DNA of 64,000 nucleotides from an uncultured delta proteobacterium. GTDB taxonomy: Bacteria; Desulfobacterota; Desulfuromonadia; Geobacterales; DSM-12255. The translations under genes and the position numbers were made by a program. The notes under the pieces were generated by a model. It saw only the letters and a list, made by a program, of their open reading frames with translations, searched no databases and had not been told where the DNA came from. Numbering within the stretch: the first letter of the stretch is position 1; the number at the start of each line of letters is the position of its first letter. Positions 2,752 to 61,447 of this stretch are shown piece by piece. Location of the stretch: NCBI GenBank assembly GCA_963787125.1, contig CAWBBV010000007.1, forward strand, positions 224,001-288,000, read 5' to 3'.

Positions 2752-4089
2752 TCAGGGAGTCAGATAGATATTCTTAACAGTGACCTTCGGCTCCAAGTTT
2801 ACAATCGAACGCTTTAAAGCATTACTTTCCCCAACGACAACAAAATGAATATGATCTGGCAGTTCGTCAAAATCCTCTTCTTTGTTGGCCGCCCTAAATG
2901 TTAGAAAATAGTCTCCAGGTGCAAGCCACATCCTCAAGTAAACTCTCCCCTCAACCACACTCCCTCTTTTTTGTGGATTTATAGCAACTTTTTGAATATC
3001 ACTATTAGTTGAAAATAGAAACAAACCCATTGCATTAGTTATTGGATATCCAACATGGAGTTTATCTATGTCGACATAAGTGAGTATTTTAGTGAAAAAG
3101 GTGTAATGTTTACCTGATTCTAGGATGGTAGTTCTGTTCCCGTCATTATCAGTTATCCCACAATCAATGATCTCTGCTTTTTTCTGACCATCCCAGGTTG
3201 TTAATTTAGCTTCAACCTGCTTTTTCAGCTTTTCATTGTTATGGATTACTCCAACTTGATTCTTGCTTGTTTCTGAAAGACATTCGGATGTGTCTGATAA
3301 TTCGTCGTCAAAAGAATTCATTGTTCTATCTTTTACCATCACATGATCTAGCATTAGTCTTTGATAAACTCTTGTGACGTTTTTAGGTATCCCATGTTCT
3401 ATAACTTTACCGCCACTCAATAGATAAGCATAATCGCACAGAATATTTACTGAATCCAACCCATGTGAAACAAACAGTATAGTTTTGTTGCTTTCATGAA
3501 ATGATTCAAGCTTTGCGTAACACTTTCGTTGGAATCTTATATCTCCAACAGCAAGAGCTTCGTCAACAATGAGAATATCCGCATCAACGTTTATTGCAAC
3601 GGCAAATGCAAGTCTTATGAACATGCCACTAGAATAAATCTTTACTGGTTGATAAATAAAGTCTCCGATATCAGCGAAAGAAAGTATATCGTCTAGTTTT
3701 TCGTCGATTTCTACTCTGGAATGCCCCATAAGTGTGCCATTAAAATAAACATTCTCAAGCCCGGTCAACTCGGGGTTAAACCCTGCACCAAGTTCTAATA
3801 GTGCCGAGACTTTACCGTTTACTATAACACTCCCGCTTGTAGGAGTCAGGATGCCGGTTATTGCTTTCAGTAGTGTAGATTTACCAGAACCGTTCATTCC
3901 AATGATACCAACGGTCTCTCCTCTCCTTATCTCAAAGCTAACATCATCAAGTGCATGGAAATCTCGATGATATTTTATCCCGAAAGGATTCAACGACTCC
4001 TTGAAACGGTCCAGAATTGAATCATAAAGTTTATAAGTTTTTGTGAGATTATTTATTTTAACTGCCACTTCCCCAGTCATTAACTGCAA
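2752..4089 (-). CDS. wzt: Polysaccharide ABC exporter ATP-binding subunit with Wzt C-terminal domain
   Basis: Walker A GMNGSGKST, YSSGMFIRLAF signature, ILIVDEAL Walker B, long C-terminal extension. Confidence 0.9.
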   Translation of the reverse strand: MQLMTGEVAVKINNLTKTYKLYDSILDRFKESLNPFGIKYHRDFHALDDVSFEIRRGETVGIIGMNGSGKSTLLKAITGILTPTSGSVIVNGKVSALLELGAGFNPELTGLENVYFNGTLMGHSRVEIDEKLDDILSFADIGDFIYQPVKIYSSGMFIRLAFAVAINVDADILIVDEALAVGDIRFQRKCYAKLESFHESNKTILFVSHGLDSVNILCDYAYLLSGGKVIEHGIPKNVTRVYQRLMLDHVMVKDRTMNSFDDELSDTSECLSETSKNQVGVIHNNEKLKKQVEAKLTTWDGQKKAEIIDCGITDNDGNRTTILESGKHYTFFTKILTYVDIDKLHVGYPITNAMGLFLFSTNSDIQKVAINPQKRGSVVEGRVYLRMWLAPGDYFLTFRAANKEEDFDELPDHIHFVVVGESNALKRSIVNLEPKVTVKNIYLTP

Positions 4090-6188: not shown

Positions 6189-6313
6189 ATAGCTATTTTT
6201 CAAAGGAAACGTTTAATAGGTCATGGGCTGACGAGAGTATCTTGCATTGTTAATGCCGAAGTGGAGGGGAGGGGGCAGAATCGTTTATGGATGAAACAAA
6301 GTCTTTCTCTTTA

Positions 6314-7063
6314 GCCACGGATGTCACGGATGTTCACGGATAAAACCTTTAGAATCTTCTTGGTTAAAACCTTATTGGTTAGCCTTACATCCGTGTTAAT
6401 CCGTGTAATCCGTGGCAAAGAATTTTTTCTGAAGACCTTTAGCCACGGATGTCACGGATGTTCACGGATAAAACCTTTAGAATCTTCTTGGTTAAAACCT
6501 TATTGGTTAGCCTTACATCCGTGTTAATCCGTGTAATCCGTGGCAAAGAATTTTTTCTGAAGACCTTTAGCCACGGATGTCACGGATGTTCACGGATAAA
6601 ACCTTTAGAATCTTCTTGGTTAAAACCTTATTGGTTGGCCTTACATCGGTGCTAATCCGTGTAATCCGTGGCAAATGCCTTTTTTCTGAAGACCTTTAGC
6701 CACGGATGTCACGGATGTTCACGGATAAAATCTTTAGAATCTTCTTGGTTAAAACCTTATTGGTTGGCCTTACATCGGTGCTAATCCGTGTAATCCGTGG
6801 CAAATGCCTTTTTTATCTGAAAACCTTTAGCCACGGATGTCACGGATGTTCACGGATAAAATCTTTAGAATCTTTTTGGTTAAAACCTTTATTGGTTAGC
6901 CTTACATCCGTGCTAATCCGTGTAATCCGTGGCAGAAAGCCTTAATTCTCTAAATCTTTAGCCACTGATGTCACGGATGTTCACGGATAAAGTCTTTAGA
7001 ATCTTCTTGGTTAAAACCTTCTGGGTTGGCCTTTCATCAGTGTAAATCCGTGTAATCCGTGGC
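6314..7063. repeat. Palindromic repeat array block 1 (6 units, about 128-131 bp period)
   Basis: Unit is GCCACGGATGTCACGGATGTTCACGGAT, an AT-rich loop, then ATCCGTGTTAATCCGTGTAATCCGTGGC. Left arms at about 6314, 6442, 6570, 6699, 6830, 6961. Confidence 0.95.
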
Positions 7064-7079
7064 AGAGAATTTTTTCTGC

Positions 7080-7457
7080 TTATAATACGAATCGTTTAAA
7101 TTCAGCACGTTCACTGCCGAAATTTACCAAGAGGCCAACCTGGATTCCAGTGGCTTTCAAGTAGTTTATCAACTGTGCCTGATGTACCGGCTTCAGGGAA
7201 TCCACTGCCTTCAACTCAACGATAACCTGATTCTCAACCAGAATATCTGGATAATAAAGCCCAACATCTTCACCCTTGTAGATGACATGCAGCTCCTTCT
7301 GCTCTTCCAACAGCGAGCCTCTCAGTTGAAGCTCCCTTACCAGTGCCTTCTGATAGACTGCTTCAAGAAAGCCCGGTCCGAGAATAGAATGAACCTCATA
7401 AATTGCTCCGATTATCCTGGAGGTAAGCTCTTCAGCGATCAAATTCGTGCAATTCAT
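7080..7457 (-). CDS. GxxExxY protein (PD-(D/E)XK nuclease-like)
   Basis: LGPGFLEAVY, PDILVENQVIVELKA, QLINYLKATG..GLLVNFG. Confidence 0.92.
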   Translation of the reverse strand: MNCTNLIAEELTSRIIGAIYEVHSILGPGFLEAVYQKALVRELQLRGSLLEEQKELHVIYKGEDVGLYYPDILVENQVIVELKAVDSLKPVHQAQLINYLKATGIQVGLLVNFGSERAEFKRFVL

Positions 7458-7484
7458 TGAATAAACCTCTTCTTAAAACCCTTA

Positions 7485-8037
7485 GCCACGGATGTCACGG
7501 ATTAACACGGATAAAGTCTTTAGAATCTTCTTGGTTAAAACCTTATTGGTTAGCCTTTCATCAGTGTAAATCCGTGTAATCCGTGGCAAAAAAGCCTTTG
7601 ACTAAAAATCCTTAGCCACGGATGTCACGGATTAACACGGATAAAACCTTTTGAAATCTTTTTTTGGTTAAACACTTTATATTCTGTTTTTCATCGGTGT
7701 AAATCCGTGTAATCCGTGGATAAAGGCCTTTGACTTAAAACCCTTGGCCACGGATGTCACGGATGAACACGGAAAGAACCTTTTGACATCTTTTTTTGGT
7801 TAAACACTTTAGATTCTGTTTTTCATCGGTGTAAATCCGTGTAATCCGTGGATAAAGGCCTTTGACTTAAAACCCTTGGCCACGGATGTCACGGATGAAC
7901 ACGGAAAGAACCTTTTGACATCTTTTTTTGGTTAAACACTTTAGATTCTGTTTTTCATCGGTGTAAATCCGTGTAATCCGTGGTTAAAAGCATTTGACTT
8001 AAAACACTTATCCACGTATGTCACGGATGCCCACGGT
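7485..8037. repeat. Palindromic repeat array block 2 (4 units plus a lone left arm abutting the HEPN stop)
   Basis: Left arms at about 7485, 7615, 7747, 7879; half unit TCCACGTATGTCACGGATGCCCACGG at about 8011. Confidence 0.93.
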
Positions 8038-29330: not shown

Positions 29331-30143
29331 ATGAACTACCTCCGGATATTTGTACTTTTCTTAAAAGACCTCTTCCTGCGTCGCAACATGATTATCGAAC
29401 TGGCGAAGCAGGACTTCCGCAGTAAGTACCTCGGCTCTTATCTTGGCATTCTTTGGGCGTTCATTCATCCGACAATCTATGTGTCAATTCTGTGGGTAGT
29501 GTTTCAGGTCGGTTTCAAGTCTCAACCGGCCGGAGATGTGCCATTTGTGCTCTGGATGCTTTGCGGCATAATTCCCTGGTTTTTCTTCAGTGAATCTCTC
29601 AACAGTGCCACAAGCTCAATTCTCGACAACTCATTTTTGTTAAAGAAAGTCAATTTTAGCGTTGGGATGCTGCCGATCGTCAAGATACTTTCTGCGCTTG
29701 TCCTGCATGCCTTTTTCATTCTGGTTATTTTTAGCATGTTTCTTATCTACCGAACTCCGGTTACGCTGCACTGTCTCCAGGTTTTCTATTATCTTTTCTG
29801 CACCATAATCCTTTTGTTAGGTCTTTCCTGGTTGACATCGTCAGTTATAATATTCTTTCGTGACATGGGCCAGATAGTCAATATGGTTCTCCAATTCCTC
29901 TTCTGGATGACCCCCATCTTCTGGTCTGCCAAGATACTCCCCCCTAAATATCTCAACATGGTCAAGCTTAATCCCGTCTATTATATCGTTGAAGGTTATC
30001 GGGAAAGCTTTATCTATCATGTCTGGTTCTGGAACGGTCATTATGAGCTTACTGCTTACTTCTGGCTGGTGACCGGAGCCATATTCGTCAGTGGTGCAGT
30101 TGTTTTCAGAAGGCTCAGACCACACTTCGCAGATGTGCTCTAG
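29331..30143 (+). CDS. wzm: Polysaccharide ABC exporter permease
   Basis: FRSKYLGSYLGILW, PWFFF, FRD..Q, TPIFW, LNP..YIVEGYR, HFADVL. Confidence 0.9.
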   Translation: MNYLRIFVLFLKDLFLRRNMIIELAKQDFRSKYLGSYLGILWAFIHPTIYVSILWVVFQVGFKSQPAGDVPFVLWMLCGIIPWFFFSESLNSATSSILDNSFLLKKVNFSVGMLPIVKILSALVLHAFFILVIFSMFLIYRTPVTLHCLQVFYYLFCTIILLLGLSWLTSSVIIFFRDMGQIVNMVLQFLFWMTPIFWSAKILPPKYLNMVKLNPVYYIVEGYRESFIYHVWFWNGHYELTAYFWLVTGAIFVSGAVVFRRLRPHFADVL

Positions 30144-36819: not shown

Positions 36820-37713
36820 ATGGATACACTAGATATCCTGGAAAACGAATCAATCCGGATCATCCGCGAAGCGGTAGCGCAAGCTGAAAAACCGGCAATG
36901 CTCTATTCTATCGGCAAAGACTCTTCTGTGATGCTTCATCTGGCGCTGAAGGCGTTCTACCCGCTGAAACCGCCCTTGCCGCTGGTACATGTGGACACAA
37001 CCTGGAAATTCAAAGAGATGATAACCTTTCGCGACGAGACTGTTGCCCGGCTCGGTCTGGAGTTGATAACCTATACGAATGAAGAGGGGGTCGCGCAAGG
37101 GATCTCGCCATTCACCCATGGCAGCAAAGTCTACACTGATATCATGAAAACCGAGGCGCTGCGTAAAGTGCTGGATATGTTCCGTTTTGACATGATTTTC
37201 GGTGGTGCGCGCCGGGACGAGGAGAAGAGCCGGGCCAAGGAGCGGGTCTTCTCCTTTCGCGATGCGGGGCACAGGTGGGAGCCGCGCGGGCAGCGGCCCG
37301 AACTCTGGTCGATCCCGAATCTGCGCAAAAAGAAGGACGAGAGTTTCCGGGTTTTCCCGCTGTCGAACTGGACTGAACTTGATGTCTGGCGATATATTCA
37401 GCGCGAAAATATTCCGACCGTCCCGCTCTATTTTGCGGCAAAACGCCCGGTGGTAAAGCGTGACGGCCAGTGGCTGCTGCTCGATGACGAACGGCTGAAA
37501 CTTTTGCCGGGAGAAATGGCTGAAATGAGAATGATCCGTTTCCGAACTCTTGGTTGCTATCCGCTCACCGCCGGGGTCGAATCAACTGCTGCTACGGTCG
37601 CCGAAATAGTTGCCGAACTGGAAGCTGCCGACACCTCCGAGCGCTGTGGCCGGCTGATTGATTTTGATCAGGCGGGCAGCATGGAGAAAAAGAAGCAGGA
37701 GGGGTATTTCTGA
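36820..37713 (+). CDS. cysD: Sulfate adenylyltransferase subunit 2
   Basis: [35 protein letters not shown]. Confidence 0.97.
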
Positions 37714-39623
37714 TGAGCGGCGAAGTGCTGAAATTTCTCACTTGCGGCAGTGTCGATGACGGCAAATCAACCTTGATAGGACACCTGCTTTACCTGACGG
37801 GCAATATCCCTGTTGATCAGCTGCAAACTCTTGAGAGTGAAAGCGCCAGAATCGGCACCGCTGGAGGGGCCATGGACTATTCGCTGCTTCTTGACGGCCT
37901 GATGGCTGAGCGGGAGCAGGGGATTACCATAGATGTTGCTTATCGCTATTTCAACGCTTGCGGTCGCAAATTCATTGTTGCTGATACGCCGGGGCATGAA
38001 CAGTACACCCGCAACATGGCGACCGGTGCGTCTCAGTGTGATGCTGCGCTGATATTGGTGGATGTCCAGCAGGGGATCCTCCCCCAGACGCGGCGCCATG
38101 CTCTTATCTGCGGCTTGATGGGGATAACCCGTTTGCTCTTTGTCATCAACAAAATGGATCGTGTTGGCTTTGATGAAGTGGCCTACCGACGGGTGGAGAC
38201 CCAGAAGACAGCACTGCTTGCCGACCTTGAGAGTTTCGGTCTGAACCTTGTCGAATCAGCGGTCATACCGGTTTCCGCCCTGACCGGAGACAATCTGGCA
38301 ACAGTTTCCGCCAACATGGCCTGGTACTCCGGCGCAACGCTTCTTGAATGGCTTGCTGCTGTCGAACCGGGGTCGTGGCGGGATGCTGCAGCGCTCCGCT
38401 TGCCGGTGCAGTATGTCATCAAGGGGCAACGGGGCGGCGAGGGGTGGCAGCATACTGCTGCAGCTGAGCTAAAGAATGCTGTCGGCGGAACTTTTCGTGC
38501 CTATGCCGGCACTGTGACTTCAGGGTCGATTGCCTGCGGCGATGAGCTGATCTCTCTGCCGGCGGGACTGCCGGTAAAAGTCGCTTCAATACTGGCCGGT
38601 GACCGGCAGGTAGAGTCGGCGTCAGCCGGTATGGCTGTTGCGGTGACACTGACGGGGGAACACGATATTGTCAGCGGTGACCTGTTGGTTCCGTTACGAG
38701 AACGGCCTGAGGTTGCCGACCAGTTCAAGGTGCGACTAATCTGGATGGATGAAAGTCCGCTTTTTGCCGGTCGCCAGTACGACCTGCATGGCGCTGCCGG
38801 TGTTGCCAAGGCAGAAATAATGCGGCTGCGCAACCGGATAGAGCCGGAATCACTCCGGCGGCTGGCGACCCACAACCTTGCCAAGAACGATATTGCTGAA
38901 GCCGAAATTCACCTTTCCAGGCCGATCCCCTTCGACCCTTATGCCAAAAATCGCGAAACCGGCGCATTCATCCTTGTCGACCGCCTGACCAATGCCACTG
39001 CCTGCTGCGGCATGATTCTCCATTCACTGCGCAAAGGGGAAAACGTCCACTGGCAGCCGGAAACAGTCAGCCGTCAGACCCGCAGCGGCATCAAGGGGCA
39101 TGCCCCAATGGTTGTCTGGTTTACCGGGCTATCAGGTTCCGGCAAATCAACTGTCGCCAACGCCCTGGAGTCAAGGCTCAATGCCATGGGACGCCATACC
39201 ATGCTCCTGGACGGGGACAATATCCGCCACGGTCTTAACCGCGACCTTGGCTTTACCGAGACTGACCGGATCGAAAACGTCCGCCGCATCGGTGAAGTTG
39301 CCAAGTTGATGACAGATGCCGGCCTGATTGTTATTACAGCATTTATCTCCCCCTTCAGAGCGGAGCGGAATCTGGTTCGGGAGATGCTGCCCGAAGCAGA
39401 ATTCATCGAAATCTTTGTTGATACCCCGCTGGAAATCTGCGAACAGCGAGACCCCAAGGGGCTCTACAAAAAGGCGCGGCTGGGGCAGTTACCCAACTTC
39501 ACCGGCATCAGCTCTCCTTATGAAGCGCCACTCGATCCGGAGCTGGTAGTTGACACCACGACTGTTTCGCTTGAGGAAAGCGTGGAGAGGATACTGCACT
39601 TAATTGAAAGGCAGGGTAGATAG
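37713..39623 (+). CDS. cysNC: Sulfate adenylyltransferase subunit 1 / APS kinase fusion (NodQ-like)
   Basis: [49 protein letters not shown]. Confidence 0.96.
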
Positions 39624-39625
39624 CC

Positions 39626-39710
39626 ATGATTGATTGCCCTAAAATTTCCATTGTCACCCCTCCTTCAATCAGGGGGAGTTCCTGGAAAAGACCATTCTTT
39701 TCGGTAGTTA
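39626..39710 (+). pseudogene. 5' fragment copy 1 of the GT2 gene at 41429
   Basis: [27 protein letters not shown] with one base missing in a C run; similarity ends before the MNT gene. Confidence 0.75.
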
Positions 39711-39738
39711 TTGAATCCGAATTTCGGAGATATACCAT

Positions 39739-40008
39739 ATGGCAATGAACAATGAGCAACTCGAAATAGTTAAAAAAATGGTCATTGAGTATGGCGCAAG
39801 TCGTCTGATCCTTTTTGGTAGCATGCTTGACAATCCGACAGAGGCTAGAGACATCGATCTCGCTTGTGACGGTGTCTCCGGCTGGAAGCTGTTTGAGTTG
39901 GCTGCACGATTGGAAGAAGCGCTACACACGCCACTTGATCTTGTCCCTTTAACACCAGCAAGCAGATTTACCCGATTAATAGAAGAAAGGGGACAACGAT
40001 TACTATGA
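39739..40008 (+). CDS. Minimal nucleotidyltransferase antitoxin
   Basis: LILFGS...RDIDLA...LDLVP, 89 aa. Confidence 0.85.
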   Translation: MAMNNEQLEIVKKMVIEYGASRLILFGSMLDNPTEARDIDLACDGVSGWKLFELAARLEEALHTPLDLVPLTPASRFTRLIEERGQRLL

Positions 40009-40466
40009 CTTCAGCTCAACTGCGAGAAGAGATTGACATTGAAATGGACTGTCTCAGCACATTGGCGCAGGAGATTAACTCGCTACAAAAGGATGTAGAA
40101 GGACGTGAAGCTACTGTCCGGGAAAGGACCGCTGCGGCGGCATTTCTTGCCCAGTTCTATGGAGGGATTGAAAACATACTTAAGCGAATCCATCGTTACT
40201 ATGGACTGGACCTCCCGACAGGTGACACCTGGCACCTTGATTTATTTAGAAGGTTTTGTTCGCCTGCCCATGAATTAATGCCCCTGCTTTTTGAGGCGCA
40301 ACTTGCAATGGAGCTTTCACCTTTCAGGAAGTTTCGTCATGTTGTACACCATGGTTATGGATTTCAGGTTGAGTGGGAAAGGATCATTGCAGGGATTGAG
40401 TCTGTTGAGGGCGTTTTTGCCGCTTTCAGGGTCTCAGTGAACCGATTTGTAGACGATTTAAAGTGA
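40005..40466 (+). CDS. HEPN-domain RNase toxin (HepT-like)
   Basis: [25 protein letters not shown] (RX4HXY); ATGA overlap with the MNT gene. Confidence 0.85.
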
Positions 40467-40473
40467 GGTTGTC

Positions 40474-40614
40474 ATGACTACCCTCCCCAAAATATCCATA
40501 GTTACCCCCTCCTTCAACCAGGGGAAGTTTCTCGAAAAGACCATTCTCTCCGTGCTTGAGCAGGGATACCCCAATCTTGAGTACATCGTCATCGACGGCG
40601 GCAGTAATGTCTAA
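40474..40614 (+). pseudogene. 5' fragment copy 2 (46 codons) of the GT2 gene at 41429
   Basis: [46 protein letters not shown], nearly identical to the N-terminus of 41429-42391. Confidence 0.85.
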
Positions 40615-40650
40615 AGTCATTTTAAGCGCGGAGTTGCAGAGGCATAGAGG

Positions 40651-41049
40651 GTGAGGCGTATGCATTTGAATGAAATTTCCAAATGTATTGTGGATGCAGC
40701 AATTGAAGTTCATAGGAATCTTGGTGGGCCAGGTCTTCTTGAAAATGTTTATGAAGAGGCATTGGCTTGGGAGTTGCTTCAGCGCGGTTTTATAGTTGAA
40801 AGGCAGCTTCTTGTGCCGATATTTTACAAAGGCAATGAACTGGGATCGCCACTTAAGCTTGATTTGTTGATTGAAAAACGCATTATCGTCGAAGTGAAAG
40901 CAACCTCGAATTATAACCCGATATTTGAAGCTCAGATTCTTACCTACCTCCGCATGATGGATCTCAAGGTTGGATTAGTCATCAATTTTGGTGAGAAATA
41001 TGTTAAAGATGGCATCCGGCGGGTGGTAAGCGGACTTATTGAACCGTAA
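40651..41049 (+). CDS. GxxExxY protein (PD-(D/E)XK nuclease-like)
   Basis: GPGLLENVY, LDLLIE..IIVEVKA, QILTYL, GLVINFG; likely start is ATG 40660. Confidence 0.92.
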   Translation: MRRMHLNEISKCIVDAAIEVHRNLGGPGLLENVYEEALAWELLQRGFIVERQLLVPIFYKGNELGSPLKLDLLIEKRIIVEVKATSNYNPIFEAQILTYLRMMDLKVGLVINFGEKYVKDGIRRVVSGLIEP

Positions 41050-41063
41050 ATTCAAAAACAATT

Positions 41064-41446
41064 TTTAACGCAGAGCCGCAGAGGCACAGAGGAAAACAAA
41101 AATCCCAACAATGGGTTTCTATTTACTATGATTATTTGTTTATATAGTGGTTTTCACCGCGTCTCTGCGTCTTGTGTTAAATACAGGTTTTAAAAAGGTG
41201 TCAAGATGGGCGTAGAAGCTATCTGCCAAAAATTTTTATCGTTACGCCGTCCTACGAAATGGTGGCAGTAATGTCTAAAGTCATTTTAAACGCAGAGCCG
41301 CAGAGGCACAGAGGAAAACAAAAATCCCAACAATGGGTTTCTATTTACTATGATTATTTGTTTATTTAGTGGTTTTCTCCGCGTCTCTGCGTCTCTGTGT
41401 TAAATACAGGTTTTAAAAAGGTGTCAAGATGGGCGTAGAAGCTATC
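41064..41446. repeat. Two palindromic units (CGCAGAG family) within an ~160 bp direct duplication, separated by degenerate GT2 5' fragment copy 3 (from 41206)
   Basis: AACGCAGAGCCGCAGAGGCACAGAGG ... CTCCGCGTCTCTGCGTCTCTGTGTT; 41064-41224 matches 41286-41446; lone left arm at 40624-40650. Confidence 0.88.
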
Positions 41447-42391
41447 CTACCCAAAATATCTATAGTTACCCCCTCCTTCAACCAGGGTAAGTTCCTCGAA
41501 AAGACTATCCTCTCCGTGCTGGAGCAGGGATACCCCAATCTTGAATATATAATTATCGACGGCGGCAGTACGGACGAGTCGGTGGATATTATCAAAAAGT
41601 ACGCAGACCGTTTGACTTATTGGGTCAGCGAGCCGGATCGGGGCCAGAGTCACGCCATCAATAAGGGCTTTGAGCGGGCTACGGGGGAGATCTTCGGCTG
41701 GTTGAATTCGGATGACTGGTATCATCCGGGGGCGCTGCAAGCGGTGGCTGAGGCTTTTGCCGCCAATCCTGAGGCCGGGGCGGTGGTTGGGGCTGGGGAG
41801 ATGCTGTTTGAATCAACCAGAGACGTCATCCTGGTTGAACCTTTTTCAGTGAATTTAACGACTTTGTATGGTGCTGTTGACAAGTTTTTCATGCAACCTT
41901 CCTGTTTGTTTACTCACACTGCATGGCTTGAGTGTGGTCCTCTTGATGAAAATTTGCACCTTGCAATGGATCTGGATCTCTGGTTGCGGGTTGCAAAAAA
42001 ATATCGATTTGCTTTGACAGATATGAACCTTTCCACAAGTCTGGTTCATCCTTCAGCAAAAACAAAGGCATTGGCTGCGCAATCTTTAGTAGATGCATGT
42101 CTTGTTATTATGCGACATGGGGGAGTCAATGAAGGTAGAGGACGGCTGGTTAAATTCGTCGAAGAACTGTACGAAACAAGAGACAGACTGATTGCGGCTA
42201 ATGATAATATTGAATTTATAGCCAAGGAAATTGCTGAAATCAATACAGTAAAGTCTGCAAAAGAAAGCTTTGTTGAGAAGCTGCAAGAAGAGTTGGCGGC
42301 GAAAGATGCCCGTTTAACAGCCATGGAAAACTCTTTAAGTTGGAGAATTACAGATCCATTCAGAAAGATAGCGAACAAAATTATGTCCTGA
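41429..42391 (+). CDS. GT2 glycosyltransferase with C-terminal coiled coil
   Basis: [24 protein letters not shown]; tail SLSWRITDPFR. Confidence 0.9.
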   Translation: MGVEAILPKISIVTPSFNQGKFLEKTILSVLEQGYPNLEYIIIDGGSTDESVDIIKKYADRLTYWVSEPDRGQSHAINKGFERATGEIFGWLNSDDWYHPGALQAVAEAFAANPEAGAVVGAGEMLFESTRDVILVEPFSVNLTTLYGAVDKFFMQPSCLFTHTAWLECGPLDENLHLAMDLDLWLRVAKKYRFALTDMNLSTSLVHPSAKTKALAAQSLVDACLVIMRHGGVNEGRGRLVKFVEELYETRDRLIAANDNIEFIAKEIAEINTVKSAKESFVEKLQEELAAKDARLTAMENSLSWRITDPFRKIANKIMS

Positions 42392-42447
42392 CCCTGAGCT
42401 TGATTTAACGCGATGCAAAAATATCATAACTGCTTCAGTAGCTGGAT

Positions 42448-45400
42448 GTGCGAATGAAAACTATATCGATAGCTGACAATATCAACAACAAAATTAAAGT
42501 TCTTTATCTGTCCCACTCTGCTGAACTATCTGGTGGCGGAGAAATATGTCTTTTAACCCTGTTGCGGCATCTGGATAGGGAGAGCATTGAACCGATCGTG
42601 TTATTCCCGACCGATGGGCCGTTCAAGGACGCTGTCGAGCGACTGTTAATCAAAACCTATATCGTGCCGATGGAATGGTGGGTGGAGACAGAATATGGCA
42701 TCCCTTTTCAGGATGAGAGTTTTGCTGAACGTGTCGGACTCATTGGCGAGATAATTGCGCAAGAGCAACCTGACATAATTCACACAAATACATCGGTGCT
42801 CTGGGAAGGGGCTGTTGCGGCAAGAATTCATAATGTCCGTCATGTCTGGCACATCCATGAAGTCTTGGCAGGGCACCCGAGTCTTACTCCAGTATTGCCA
42901 CTTTCACTGCTATACTTTGTTATTGAGACATTTACAGACAGAGTTGTTGCTGTGTCTGATACGGAAAAACGTGAGCTGACCAGATATATTTCCCCGGACA
43001 AAATTACTACAATTCATAACGGGGTTGAAGCGCGGCAATTTTCTCCGGAAACTGGAATTTCTCTCAGGGAAGAGTTGGGTATAGCTGCTGGAGATGCAAT
43101 CGCTCTGACTTTAGCTTCACTTGCCAGGTTCAAAGGGATTGACACACTGCTCGATGCGGCACTGCTTGTAAAAGAGAATAACGATAAGATCAGATTTGTT
43201 CTTGCCGGCAGCGGGACAGATGATGCTATTGAAGCACTGAACAAAAAGATTGCCCGGCTTGGTTTGGTGGATGTTATCCACTACCTCGGTTTTCGCAGTG
43301 ATGTCGAACATCTCCTGGCGGCAGCAAATTTTCTGGTGGTTTCCTCCATTAACGAATCCTTTTCACTGGTAACAGCAGAGGCGATGGCCGCTGGTAAGAC
43401 GGTCATAACAACGGATTGCGGTGGCCCTGCTGAACTGGTTATTGATGGTGAAACCGGATTTATTGTGCCTGTAGGTGATGCTTCGTTATTGCGAGAGAAA
43501 ATGCTTCAACTGACAGCAGATGAGCAGATGATGAAGACTATGGGCAATAACGGGCGTAAGCGGTTTATGGAATGTTTTACGGCTGACATTTATGCAGAGA
43601 AGTTCCTGCTTTTATATAAAGAAATTAGTCGTTTTCCTGGGCTGCCTACGCTAACTGGTAGCGAAAGCAGGTTGATTCAGGACGCGGCTTCTTTTTACCA
43701 GAACCATCTGGAAAAGATGAAGAAACTTCTTGCCCAAGAGAGGATAATCGCAGAAAAAAATTATCAGATCGCAGAGCGAAACCAACAGATCGAACTAAGA
43801 GATAATGAAATAAAATATCAAATAGAAGTCGGAAAGCAGAATGTTGCAGGGCTTGAGTATCGTCTGAATCAGCAGCTTGCCGAGCTGGAGTATCGTCTGA
43901 AACAGCAGCTTGTAGAGTTGGAACATCAACTGGCTTCGCGTGATTTAGAGATTCAAAATCTTGACGCACAACTCCAGCAGCGGGAGGAGCTGTTAGGGCA
44001 CAAAACACAGCAGTTGCGGCATAAGGATGAACTGCTGAACGCCACCTATGATTCCCTTTCCTGGCGGGTTACCAAGCCGCTCCGCAAGTCGCATGCCTTT
44101 ATTATGAGGTCGCTGATCTCTCTTGAAGGAGGAAAGCGCCAAGCTCCTTCAGTACAGATGCTGCCAGAGAAAGAACTGCTTATCCATGAACAGTTGCTCG
44201 GTGAACTGCGGACCGGTAAAGGCTCGACATTTGATGTCATCGTCTTTCCGGTTATCGACTGGCATTTTCGTATCCAGCGTCCCCAGCATCTAGCCATGAG
44301 TCTGGCGCGGGAGGGTCACCGCACTTTCTATCTGACAATAGATTTTATTGTGAGCGGTGAGCCGGGGTTTCAGCTTGTCGAGAACCCGGCTGAAAATGTG
44401 TTTATAGTGAGACTCGTCTGTTCGGCTCATCGCTCGCTCAATGTCTATCAGGACGTTATCGGCAAGGAGCAGCGCCAGTCGCTCGTGGCCTCGCTTCTGT
44501 CGTTATTCGATAGTTGTGGAGTGACAGATCTGGTTTCGATTATAGATTTACCTTTCTGGCAATCGGTGGCGACAGCACTTCCCGGCAATCTGGTAGTCTA
44601 TGACTGTATGGATCATCATGCCGGTTTTGCCACCAACTCCAATCGCATGCTCCGGGAGGAGCAGCAGCTTCTGGCCGGTGCCGATCTGGTTATTACAACA
44701 TCAGAGCGGTTGTCTCAGATTGTCGCCAAGAAGGCGGCGAATATTATCATCCGCAACGGCGCCGAGGTTGACTTTTTCTCCAAACGACCGCAAGAGCTGC
44801 AAATTTCGCAGGGGAAGCCGGTAGTCGGCTATTACGGAGCAATTGCAGAATGGTTCGATATTGATTTGGTCATCGCAGCTGCCAGGGCCTGTCCGGACTG
44901 GGAGTTCGTTCTGATTGGCTCCACTGCCGGTTGTGAAACCCGCGAAGCTCGTAACCTTGCCAATATCACCTTTATCGGTGAAGTTCCCTATGGAAGTCTG
45001 CCGGGCTACCTGTACGCCTTCGATGTCTGCATGATTCCTTTCAAGGTTATCGAGCTGACACTCTGTACCAATCCGGTGAAGGTGTACGAGTACCTGAGTG
45101 CCGGCAAGCCGGTGGTATCGACTGCACTGCCGGAAGTTCAACTCATGGGCGATGTGGTTCACTGTGCTTCATCCACGCCCCAGTTTATCACTGCGCTGCA
45201 GGTTGCCATGCTGGAGAGCAGCGACACAGAGCTTGCCCGTCGCCGGGCAACCTGGGCTCAGCAGCATGATTGGCGTGAGCGGGCGCGGCAGTTGACCCAG
45301 ACGCTGCATGGGCTTTTTCCGAAAGTGAGTGTGGTGGTTCTTACCTACAATAACCTGGACCTGACCAAAGAGTGTCTCGCCAGCCTGCTGACAGAATCCG

Positions 45401-59394: not shown

Positions 59395-60264
59395 TTACCC
59401 CAACGCCGCCTTCATCGCCTCGCCCATTTTCGTCGGACTCGCCGCGACGGTTACCCCGCATTCAGTCAGGATCCTTATCTTGTCTTCAGCTTTACCTTTG
59501 CCACCGGTTATGATTGCTCCGGCATGCCCCATTCGTTTGCCGGTCGGGGCGGTAACCCCGGCGATGAAGGCTGCTACCGGTTTTTTCATGTTGGCCCTTG
59601 ATCCAGTATGCAGCATCCTCTTCCGCACCGCCACCGATCTCGCCGATCATGAAGACCGCTTCAGTGTCAGGATCCTTGTTGAAAAGATCGAGGCAGTCGA
59701 TGAATTTCATGCCGCTGATTGGGTCGCCGCCGATGCCGACGCAGGTTGACTGGCCGAGCCCCATGTCTGTCAGCTGTTTGACCGCTTCGTAGGTGAGGGT
59801 GCCGCTGCGGGATACCACGCCGATTTTGCCCGGTTATGGATGTAGCCAGGCATGATGCCGACCTTGCACTCTCCGGGGGTGATGACTCCGGGGCAGTTGG
59901 GCCCGACAAGATTCATCTTCTTGCCGTCAAGAATCCTTCTGGCCAGCACCATGTCTCTGACCGGAATCCCTTCAGTGATGCAGATGGCAAGGGCAATGCC
60001 GGCGTCAGCAGCTTCCAGGATGGCATCGGCCGCCGCCGGAGGTGGTACGAATATCATGGAGACGTCTGCCCTGGTATAGTGAACAGCTTCCTCGACAGTA
60101 TTGAAGACCGGTATCCCCTCGATATGGATGCCGCCTTTGCCAGGGGTGACACCGGCAACGATCTTCGTGCCGTAATCGCGACACTGCTGGGTGTGAAAAA
60201 GACCGCTCCTGCCGGTAATCCCCTGGACGACAATCTTTGAGCTCTTATTGAGAAGTATTGCCAT
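59395..60264 (-). pseudogene. sucD: Succinyl-CoA ligase alpha subunit with two frameshifts (about 59835 and 59595)
   Basis: VQGITG, GPNCPG / [14 protein letters not shown] / RMGHAGA lie in three ORF fragments; the indels sit in short homopolymers. Confidence 0.9.
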
Positions 60265-60289
60265 TTGTTTATCTCCGTTAGGTATCTTT

Positions 60290-61447
60290 TCAGCCGAGCA
60301 TGGAAACAATCTTGGCAGCGCCATCGCCGAGATTATCGCCTATCTGTACATTAAGGCCTGATTCAAGCAGCAGCTTCTTCCCCTCTTCAACCTTGCTGCC
60401 GTCCATCCTGACTACAATCGGCAGAATGCACTGTACTTCCGAGGCGGCTTCTATGATCCCTTGGGCAATTACATCACAGCGCATGATGCCGCCGAAGATA
60501 TTGACAAAAACACCTTTTACATCGCAGTCTTGGAGGATTATCTTGAAAGCTTCTGCAACCTTTTCCCTGGTAGCGCCGCCGCCGACATCGAGAAAGTTGG
60601 CCGGCTGCGCGCCGAACTCTTTGAGGACGTCAAGGGTTGCCATGGCCAAGCCGGCACCGTTAACCATACAGCCGACATTGCCGGTCAGCTTGATATAAGA
60701 GAGGTCATACTTGCCGGCGGTAATCTCTAAAGGATCGAGCTGGGAGTAGTCGAGCATGTCAGGGTATTCGCGATGGCGGAACATGGCGTTGTCATCAAAA
60801 TTTATCTTGGCATCCATTGCCATCAGCCAGCCGGCTTTAGTAATAACCAGCGGGTTTATCTCAACCAGGAAACAGTCCTTCTCCAGCGCACATCTGTAGA
60901 GATTCTGGATAAGCTCGACGCAATCCTCGCAGATAGTGCCAGTAAGGCCAAGCGCAATGGCAATCTTCCGAGCCTGGAATGGTCTGAGGCCGGTAAAGGG
61001 GTCAATATTCAACATATGAATCTTGTCCGGAGAAGCTTTGGCGACCTCCTCGATATCCATGCCGCCTTCGGCGGAAGCGATCAGGCAGTATCTTGATGTT
61101 TCGCGGTCAAGGGTAATTGAGAGGTAAAACTCACGGGAGATTTCAACCGCTTCTTCAATCAGGATCCGGCGAACTCTCAGTCCTTCCGGTCCGGTCTGGG
61201 GGGTGACAAGTTTTTTACCAAAAAGCTCCTTACCAAATTCTTGTGCCTGTTCCGGGTGGTGGACAAGCTTTACACCTCCTGCCTTACCGCGACCACCGGC
61301 ATAAATTTGTGCCTTGACGACACAGCGACCTCCCATCTCTTTGGCAGCCCGTTCAACCTGGTCTGATGTTAAGGCTACCCGCCCTCTCGGGATCGGAATG
61401 GAGTAGCTGTTTAGAATCTCTTTAGCCTGATATTCGTGAATGTTCAT
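60290..61447 (-). CDS. sucC: Succinyl-CoA ligase beta subunit
   Basis: [41 protein letters not shown]. Confidence 0.97.

Follow-up and report, generated by a model that had tools for sequence, protein, structure and literature searches.

Why should the beginning of one glycosyltransferase gene occur three more times directly upstream of that gene, interleaved with a putative toxin-antitoxin pair, a nuclease-fold gene and hairpins? The question is raised by a locus in a 64,000-nucleotide (nt) stretch of DNA from an uncultured delta proteobacterium (assembly GCA_963787125.1, contig CAWBBV010000007.1, positions 224,001–288,000), which was analyzed at its full length and is called the window below. 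From the sequence at 38800–42800, the list of open reading frames (ORFs) and Pfam matches, the order on the + strand is cysD, cysNC, relic 1, MNT/HEPN, relic 2, GxxExxY, hairpin, relic 3, hairpin and GT2, where the relics are partial copies of the start of the intact GT2 gene (Table 1). The reading that we lean towards is that this is a hot spot of cassette accretion, produced by sequential displacement with the conserved GT2 start as the anchor.

GT2-start relics and their cassettes

The initial annotation of this DNA had placed recurrences of the GT2 5′ end at 39626, 40474 and, in degenerate form, 41206, interleaved with the MNT-HEPN genes, the GxxExxY gene and a hairpin unit. All three copies were found there, and the ORF list, Pfam and a repeat finder gave the same interleaving. 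Relic 2 (40478–40606) matched the gene start (41442–41570) at 90% over 129 nt (blastn E 3e-45); it has its own start codon (MTTLPKIS...), and its ORF at 40474–40614 scored 38.6 bits to PF00535. Relic 1, whose ATG lies 2 nt past the cysNC stop, matched GT2 nt 22–83 at 81% over 62 nt (E 2e-9). In relic 3 the first 18 nt are identical to GT2 and the next 34 or so are about 70% identical; this diverged part, LPKIFIVTPSYE, is out of frame and is followed by GGTGGCAGTA of the left end of the hairpin module described below. Taken alone relic 3 was not significant (tblastn E 0.16), yet a 222-nt tandem repeat (41046–41223 vs 41268–41446, 93–100% identical, with a 51-nt exact stretch inside) includes it in register. 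A 47-nt core is common to copies 1 and 2 and the gene at 83–87%. Whole-genome tblastn found GT2-start pieces of this type at this locus only.

The copies had also been described as something other than simple exact duplications, and their differences from the resident start were indeed mostly synonymous. Relic 2 differed by 10 synonymous changes and 1 non-synonymous change (proportions per synonymous and non-synonymous site, pS 0.36 and pN 0.011; pN/pS 0.03), relic 1 by 11 synonymous and 3 non-synonymous codon differences plus a one-base deletion that sits in a C run, and relic 3 by 6 and 3 codon differences. The relics of three related genomes (G016, G008 and G022 in our numbering) were also synonymous-biased, with pN/pS of 0.03–0.2; for scale, the GT2 start segment of this genome and that of its congener G007 have a pS of 0.63. 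Roughly equal change per site is expected for a neutral truncated copy, so the synonymous bias indicates that the differences arose in working genes. Judged by their codons, the relics are most probably former functional alleles and not decayed local duplicates.

Before the conserved PKISIVTPS, relic 1 reads MIDC, relic 2 reads MTTL, and relic 3 and the intact gene both read MGVEAIL. The earlier claim that the N-termini differ therefore holds for three kinds among the four starts, copy 3 and the gene having the same one (MGVEAI). These N-terminal codons go with the preceding cassette, and the MTxLPK form follows many cassettes in relatives.

Upstream of relic 2 lies a pair of genes predicted to encode an MNT-like nucleotidyltransferase and a HepT-like HEPN protein. 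The HEPN match (HepT-like_2, PF20797, 85.8 bits) compares with a cut-off of 27; the MNT scores were both sub-threshold (Polbeta 23 bits, cut-off 26.9; MntA 25.7 bits, cut-off 60). The start of the HEPN gene overlaps the MNT stop by 4 nt (40005–40008), and the two genes were paired in 10/10 further loci from nine other genomes (L048–L057). Catalytic motifs of these families are Rx4-6H in HEPN and GS...DxD in MNT; the translations hold the predicted motifs RHVVHH (HEPN) and GS..DID, GSMLDNPTEARDID (MNT). Homologs of HepT were absent from all 22 other family genomes and present in 9 of 98 genomes from other families of the order (at most 63% amino acid (aa) identity), a distribution which suggests that the cassette is foreign to its family. 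No cassette-linked GT2 relic was seen beside the MNT/HepT homologs in the 10 loci (about 1.5 kb per side; L057 ends at a contig end). With PADLOC, the MNT matches (PDC-S09) were weak, and HEPN and GxxExxY had no match.

The nuclease-fold gene is framed by hairpin arms at 40627–40650, 41062–41092 and 41150–41180, and its product scored 132.8 bits to TIGR04256 (cut-off 35) and 127.2 bits to PF13366 (cut-off 22). Folded as RNA, hairpin A (41046–41188) reached −38.4 kcal/mol (z −4.1, 0/200 shuffles as good) and hairpin B −42.7 kcal/mol (z −4.8). As the initial annotation had it, GGCAGT followed by AATGTCTAAAGTCATTTT occurs after both copies 2 and 3 (family D3, 89%); the repeat finder listed a 54-nt junction family at 40597, 41039 and 41261. 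The left end of the module, GGYGGCAGYA followed by AATGTCT.AAGTCATTTT, travels with the hairpin/GxxExxY module; it is seen again at two places in G008, one of them in front of a gene-less hairpin, and in a shortened form at three places in G016. From relic 2 through the following arm the alignment is unbroken, over 626 nt with G008 (82.7%) and 558 nt with G016 (80.8%), and the GxxExxY protein has 89% aa identity with its G008 counterpart and 86% with that of G016. The second, gene-less hairpin of G008 has GGTGGCAGCA and the junction string in front of it and unrelated DNA upstream, so the module brings the GT2 letters GGCAGT with it. What copies 2 and 3 have in common at their break is thus the left end of the module, which moves with it, and not two independent breaks. 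The proposal that the DGGS codons form a shared breakpoint was not supported for this reason (the string is the module left end in G008 and G016), and other relics break anywhere from nt 62 to 357.

At its right end the module consists of the hairpin, a ribosome-binding region and the GT2 start; the 51-nt repeat is this right end and spans the ribosome-binding region plus GT2 nt 1–18. A module with GT2 relic, fixed junction and GT2 start is common to three genera. Hairpin unit B is the module minus its nuclease gene, a form that loss through recombination between the left-arm direct copies would produce.

Two candidate explanations of the module were rejected. As a dispersed repeat, or genome-wide miniature inverted-repeat transposable element, the hairpin unit failed: 41268–41428 matched only three local copies, all other matches having E ≥0.013. 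GxxExxY as a GT2-specific homing element failed as a general rule, because GT2 pieces lay near only 2 of 80 related loci (relatives of the GxxExxY protein at 61–89% aa, from many phyla). None was found near the other five GxxExxY genes of this genome, and our literature search returned no paper describing hairpin-framed GxxExxY (TIGR04256/PF13366) cassettes.

Those five other GxxExxY copies are each flanked, by eye, by their own family-specific arms of short repeated words. One is in the window (7080–7457, minus strand, PF13366 148.7 bits), in a tandem array of about 1.7 kb (6309–8036) made of about 10 hairpin units of 128–132 nt with CACGGAT-type words, seven on one side of or across the gene and three on the other. 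The others are at C1:455355–455705, C8:18729–19076 (with an in-frame TAG), C24:160905–161243 and C6:18326–18664. In the C6 copy an arm-loop-arm precedes the gene and the first arm is repeated in direct orientation behind it, mirroring the layout of 40604–41180.

The same junction in related genomes

We searched 40 relatives with the GT2 protein and compared nine regions. The relatives hold empty, alternative and much longer versions of the junction and not one identical arrangement. Upstream, cysNC is the conserved flank in genera g1 and g4, and its orthologs adjoin GT2 in G015, G010 and G007. G015 has 14 nt between the cysNC stop and the GT2 start, which is the empty allele. Contig C200 of G010 has cysNC, a different pair of nucleotidyltransferase and HEPN genes, and GT2, with no relic; in contig C220 of the same genome a stop-ridden GT2 piece (nt 22–154) follows cysNC at once. 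The gap at the junction is 1.8 kb in G000 and 3.2 kb in G007. In genus g7, GT2 comes after the wzm permease gene instead of cysNC, and the gap between them is 1.0 kb in G013, 1.7 kb in G020 and 7.4 kb in G016.

The longest stacks repeat the pattern of the window many times over. G022 carries five toxin-antitoxin cassettes (three PIN pairs, DUF2281+MazF and MNT+HepT) with a GT2-start relic after each and at least eight GT2 pieces in all; its last relic (nt 20–80) abuts an unrelated GT2. G016 has at least seven cassettes and at least nine GT2 pieces between wzm and GT2, the cassettes being UPF0175/DUF3368, DUF2281+MazF, DUF433/DUF5615, DUF2281+PIN, DUF4160/DUF2442, an orphan antitoxin and three GxxExxY copies (one whole). 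Some relics begin internally, at nt 88, 97, 121 or 205, and composite relics with internal gaps occur in G016 and G022 and as relic 3 here. Within an array, relics are 97% (G016) and 95% (G022) identical.

One pair of genomes offers an earlier and a later state. G016 and G020 share, at 91.6% identity, an 800-nt stretch made up of a PIN cassette and the first 45 nt of GT2. In G020 this unit runs into the intact GT2; in G016 its GT2 homology ends at nt 62, with about 4.4 kb more of cassettes behind it. Two arrays from different genera also share a putative antitoxin gene of 65 aa, 89% identical between 5152–5365 of L036 (G016, oriented copy) and 7509–7722 of L037 (G022).

The 65-aa gene precedes a PIN toxin gene in G022; in G016 the toxin gene is gone and a GT2 relic follows, leaving an orphan antitoxin. 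In G016, too, the anchor GT2 (L036, G016:C39, 2135–4348, minus strand) makes up the N-terminal portion of an open frame of 737 aa, fused to a further domain.

Among the matches listed in a census of the family (23 genomes), short high-identity GT2-start pieces were present in at least five genomes (G000, G008, G010, G016 and G022). In a sample of the order (121 genomes, 42-aa query) the short-frame hits were confined to the family, with a weaker one in G020; the only candidate outside the family was one hit at a contig end, in G116.

Proposed sequential displacement and its alternatives

The first 380 nt or so of GT2 are conserved at 77–84% across genera. Blastn similarity of the full-length orthologs stopped at nt 371–384 in 6/9 and reached nt 574–723 in G010a, G013 and G020; the GT2 protein of G007 is 93% identical over the first 120 aa and 57% overall, and the next gene downstream, encoding a 1210-aa GT4-GT2 fusion, has no match above 29% in the relatives' loci. 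Conservation therefore ends with the 5′ third of GT2, beyond which lies the variable glycan region, and this third would be a natural crossover point. Swapping of the glycan locus downstream is implied by the loss of similarity past nt ~375 and by those next-gene matches. The initial annotation had read the stack as a layered record of glycan-locus swapping, of which one half stands: successive insertions on the conserved GT2 start are the best reading, and the layers are toxin-antitoxin and nuclease cassettes, not a direct record of glycan swaps.

We infer a mechanism of recombination, a role for addiction and an order of events from what the sequences show: the structures, how the alleles differ, how the junction varies in relatives, and the before-and-after pair. 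The site lies where conserved genes, cysDNC here and wzm in another genus, give way to a variable locus of glycan synthesis. An incoming cassette, either a toxin-antitoxin pair or a hairpin-framed GxxExxY gene, lying directly before its own GT2 start, would recombine homologously in the anchor, and its other end would be joined non-homologously inside the 5′ part of the resident GT2 (homology-facilitated illegitimate recombination). The resident start would be cut off and pushed upstream, and the GT2 gene would stay intact with a new start. For a resident toxin-antitoxin pair to survive, the illegitimate join would have to fall between the end of that cassette and the crossover, inside the GT2 5′ part, so that a relic is left each time. 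Older cassettes would be kept because toxin-antitoxin loss is penalized, and deletions would whittle away unprotected DNA, relics included; we propose that such later deletions led to the tight packing, the internally starting and composite relics and the eroded cassettes.

Spread of a module made of relic, cassette and GT2 start would proceed by double crossover, with arms from nt 1 to the break and from the break to ~380; the module might also be copied by unequal crossover. Double crossover would allow the local allele to replace that of a relic and leave the junction unchanged, as is observed; gene conversion is an alternative. For the window the proposed order is relic 1, then MNT/HepT with relic 2, then the GxxExxY hairpin module with relic 3, then the gene-less module with the present start. 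Relic 1 would be the oldest layer; it occupies the site where the intact gene begins in the empty allele (G015 and G010b, where the GT2 start comes directly after cysNC).

Several points weigh against this reading. The mechanism is drawn from end states only. All detected relics map within GT2 nt 1–380, a limit that is partly made by the method, as they were sought with this genome's GT2 and pieces of the 3′ variable region would be missed. The relics most resemble GT2 from within their genome or genus (relic 2 at 91%, those of G016 at 92–94%) and are less like the relic on the same GxxExxY module in other genera (82–83%), which would require crossovers near the junction or gene conversion. 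Packing is tight, each cassette lying 5–47 nt behind one relic and 0–10 nt ahead of the next GT2 start; without later trimming, illegitimate joins made at random would not pack in this way, and a precise mechanism would. The G016 array is eroded, with its orphan 65-aa antitoxin gene and two partial GxxExxY copies, and eroded toxins mean that addiction would not be the sole retaining force. No addictive action is known for GxxExxY proteins.

A different account we think unlikely. As a homology-based “pseudo-integron”, the locus would release cassettes as circles looped out between two relics and take them up again in GT2 5′ segments by a RecA-dependent Campbell crossover; the relics would be working recombination sites and not scars, the homologous segment being duplicated at entry. 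The tight packing and the 222-nt tandem repeat fit this account, as do the duplicates within the G016 array, which has three copies of relic, junction and GxxExxY and two units that begin at GT2 nt 121 and have the same 40 nt to their left; the relic identities within the G016 and G022 arrays fit ongoing exchange. However, flanking copies of an equal segment are predicted, and the relic ends are very unequal (nt 62 to 357), with many internal deletions. The synonymous divergence between relics and resident gene requires outside donor alleles anyway. Circles or alternative joints were not demonstrated: contigs of sequencing run X2, at 85% likeness, had joints, among others from 40390 to 41450 and from 41436 back to 40480, which may stem from variant arrays of relatives but are ambiguous because the GT2 start is itself repeated, and nothing was concluded from them.

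Quite improbable, in our view, is site-specific insertion, in which the nuclease or the hairpin would repeatedly target the DGGS codons (GGCGGCAGT) of the GT2 family. It would explain the identical break of copies 2 and 3. In its favor, the same junction lies after GT2 nt 140–142 in G000 (twice), G008 (twice) and G016 (three times), and nuclease-bearing arrays were found at four of the junctions examined (G000, G008 and G016, and G013 with another subfamily). However, the rarity of GT2 pieces near related GxxExxY loci (2/80, and 0/5 for the other genes here) speaks against it, and a simple insertion would be followed by GT2 from nt 143 onward, whereas a complete new GT2 start follows the element. 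Before the gene-less hairpin of G008 the GT2 letters again appear to be borne by the module, and the arrays of G022, G020 and G010 have no GxxExxY gene.

We consider it very improbable that the GT2 start was duplicated locally in tandem, by slippage or unequal crossover, and then decayed neutrally, the cassettes arriving by unrelated means. There is a true tandem repeat of 222 nt, and the relics are closest to the GT2 of their own genome. Against this, neutral decay predicts equality per site and pN/pS is 0.03 in relic 2 and 0.03–0.2 in relatives, the N-termini of the relics differ in a cassette-specific way, and the unit of cassette plus start in G016 and G020 is common to two species.

An assembly artefact, in which versions of one locus from different strains were joined end to end at the GT2 start that they share, is scarcely credible: the region does have repeats, the 51-nt exact one among them, and no sequencing run contained half of the stretch (the best shared only 0.15 and 0.06 of the sampled words), but the joints of relics and cassettes are unique sequence and not shared k-mers, the joint of relic 2 with GxxExxY is kept at 81–83% in two other genera, similar arrays occur in five genomes, and contigs of run X1, possibly the source sample, matched 40499–40666 (across the copy 2 junction) and 41000–41194 with 0 mismatches.

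Sequential displacement may be carried further, although here we are doubtful. It is possible that the first ~380 nt of GT2 act in the Geobacteraceae as a portable, recombinase-free attachment site. Toxin-antitoxin and nuclease cassettes bearing a copy of it could then be taken up, stacked, rearranged and exchanged among species through homologous recombination of the host. An addiction ratchet would allow the stack to change by growth alone, the stack may stabilize the linked glycan locus, and the whole would be integron-like with neither integrase nor attC.

Known arrays and the surrounding window

Integron cassette arrays that lack an integrase are known as CALIN (clusters of attC sites lacking integron-integrases). 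Like integron and CALIN arrays, the stacks have compact one- or two-gene cassettes in one orientation, rich in toxin-antitoxin genes, with a repeated separator at one variable chromosomal site. Unlike in an integron, no match to the tyrosine recombinase family PF00589 was found on the 605-kb contig (C7); the genome has eight. The separators here are also unequal pieces of coding sequence and not attC hairpins, and the 0–10 nt from a cassette stop to the next GT2 start leave no room for an attC downstream of the cassettes.

Orphan-module arrays offer a second comparison; Rhs C-terminal displacement and orphan cdiA-CT/cdiI modules are cases of them. For the effector-immunity arrays of the V. cholerae type VI secretion system (T6SS), PMC5361080 proposes sequential displacement with homology-facilitated illegitimate recombination; in this model homology anchors one side, the other side is joined illegitimately, and old small genes are retained. 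The likeness to those arrays is that a conserved stretch of a gene would be the anchor, that a new module would displace the old one sideways while pieces of the anchor gene and small genes pile up in order, that the modules match other strains, and that a selective reason for keeping the old genes is proposed. In contrast to the arrays as described there, the anchor here is the 5′ end of a gene and not the 3′ end, the stack grows upstream, and retention would be by addiction and not by immunity to neighbors. The anchor gene here encodes a glycosyltransferase and not a toxin, and the modules are free-standing toxin-antitoxin or nuclease genes, functionally unrelated to the anchor, where theirs consist of a variable gene end and its immunity gene. 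Because its modules are independent of the anchor gene, the locus is an analog and not a member of the orphan-module arrays.

Toxin-antitoxin islets are said, in the part of PMC13617665 that we cite, to spread by homologous recombination at flanking core genes. Like them, the cassettes here are small loci without mobility genes between conserved genes, patchy and eroding; unlike in the islets of that part, where no such stacking is described, the start of the flanking gene is duplicated here with every layer. In our literature search, no account turned up of toxin-antitoxin or nuclease cassettes piled between remnants of a neighboring gene's start. The logic is that of the known orphan-module arrays.

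The locus suggests that small selfish cassettes can accumulate at one point without a dedicated recombinase, riding on a conserved piece of a neighboring gene. Surface-glycan loci are usually under strong selection by phages and the environment, and the stack would preserve past insertions beside such a locus in an order that can be dated. If sequential displacement is right, it would extend from toxin-immunity loci to ordinary housekeeping-type genes, hot spots of this kind could be found as synonymous-diverged 5′ relics upstream of their own gene, and hairpin-framed GxxExxY cassettes would gain a concrete route of spread.

Table 1. Features of the cysD–GT2 interval, in coordinates of the window.
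Feature	Position	Strand	Evidence or remarks
cysD	36820-37713	+	PAPS_reduct
cysNC, sulfate adenylyltransferase subunit 1/adenosine phosphosulfate (APS) kinase fusion	37713-39623	+	PF01583 234.6 bits, PF00009 143.4 bits
GT2-start relic 1	39626-39705	+	Covers GT2 nt ~22-83, one-base deletion
MNT-like nucleotidyltransferase, putative antitoxin	39739-40008	+	Polbeta 23 bits, below cut-off
HepT-like HEPN protein, putative toxin	40005-40466	+	PF20797 85.8 bits
GT2-start relic 2	40474-40604	+	Covers GT2 nt 14-142; last letters ...GGCGGCAGTA
Hairpin module left end	40604-40650	+	Junction string AATGTCTAAAGTCATTTTAA, then left arm (GCAGAGG words)
GxxExxY/PDDEXK_3 nuclease-fold gene	40651-41049	+	PF13366 127.2 bits, TIGR04256 132.8 bits
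Hairpin unit A	41062-41180	+	Left-arm direct copy, ~55-nt loop, inverted right arm
GT2-start relic 3	41206-41270	+	18-nt start of GT2, diverged nt 19-52, then module left end
Hairpin unit B, gene-less form of the module	41268-41402	+	Junction string and arms without nuclease gene; D1 93%, D3 89%
51-nt exact repeat, second copy (first 41173-41223)	41396-41446	+	Family D5, 100% identity
Intact GT2 glycosyltransferase	41429-42391	+	PF00535 109.1 bits; 320-aa open frame; nt ~18-380 conserved (proposed anchor), remainder variable in relatives

Scans of 39400–41600 for promoters (4 sites vs 3.2 expected) and terminators (3 sites vs 2.1 expected) were uninformative. Outside the stack, the window is a glycan locus of the ABC-transporter type, with Wzt at 2752–4089, an ABC-2 permease at 29331–30143, several GT2 and GT4 genes, methyltransferases and radical-SAM genes. 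The place of cysD-cysNC, for synthesis of 3′-phosphoadenosine 5′-phosphosulfate (PAPS), directly before the glycan locus in genera g1 and g4 hints that the glycan is sulfated. Further downstream, on the minus strand, the gene for succinyl-CoA ligase alpha is split (59492–60324), with overlapping matches to CoA_binding (59770–60324) and Ligase_CoA (59492–59818); the frame apparently shifts near 59835, through either a real frameshift or a base-calling error.

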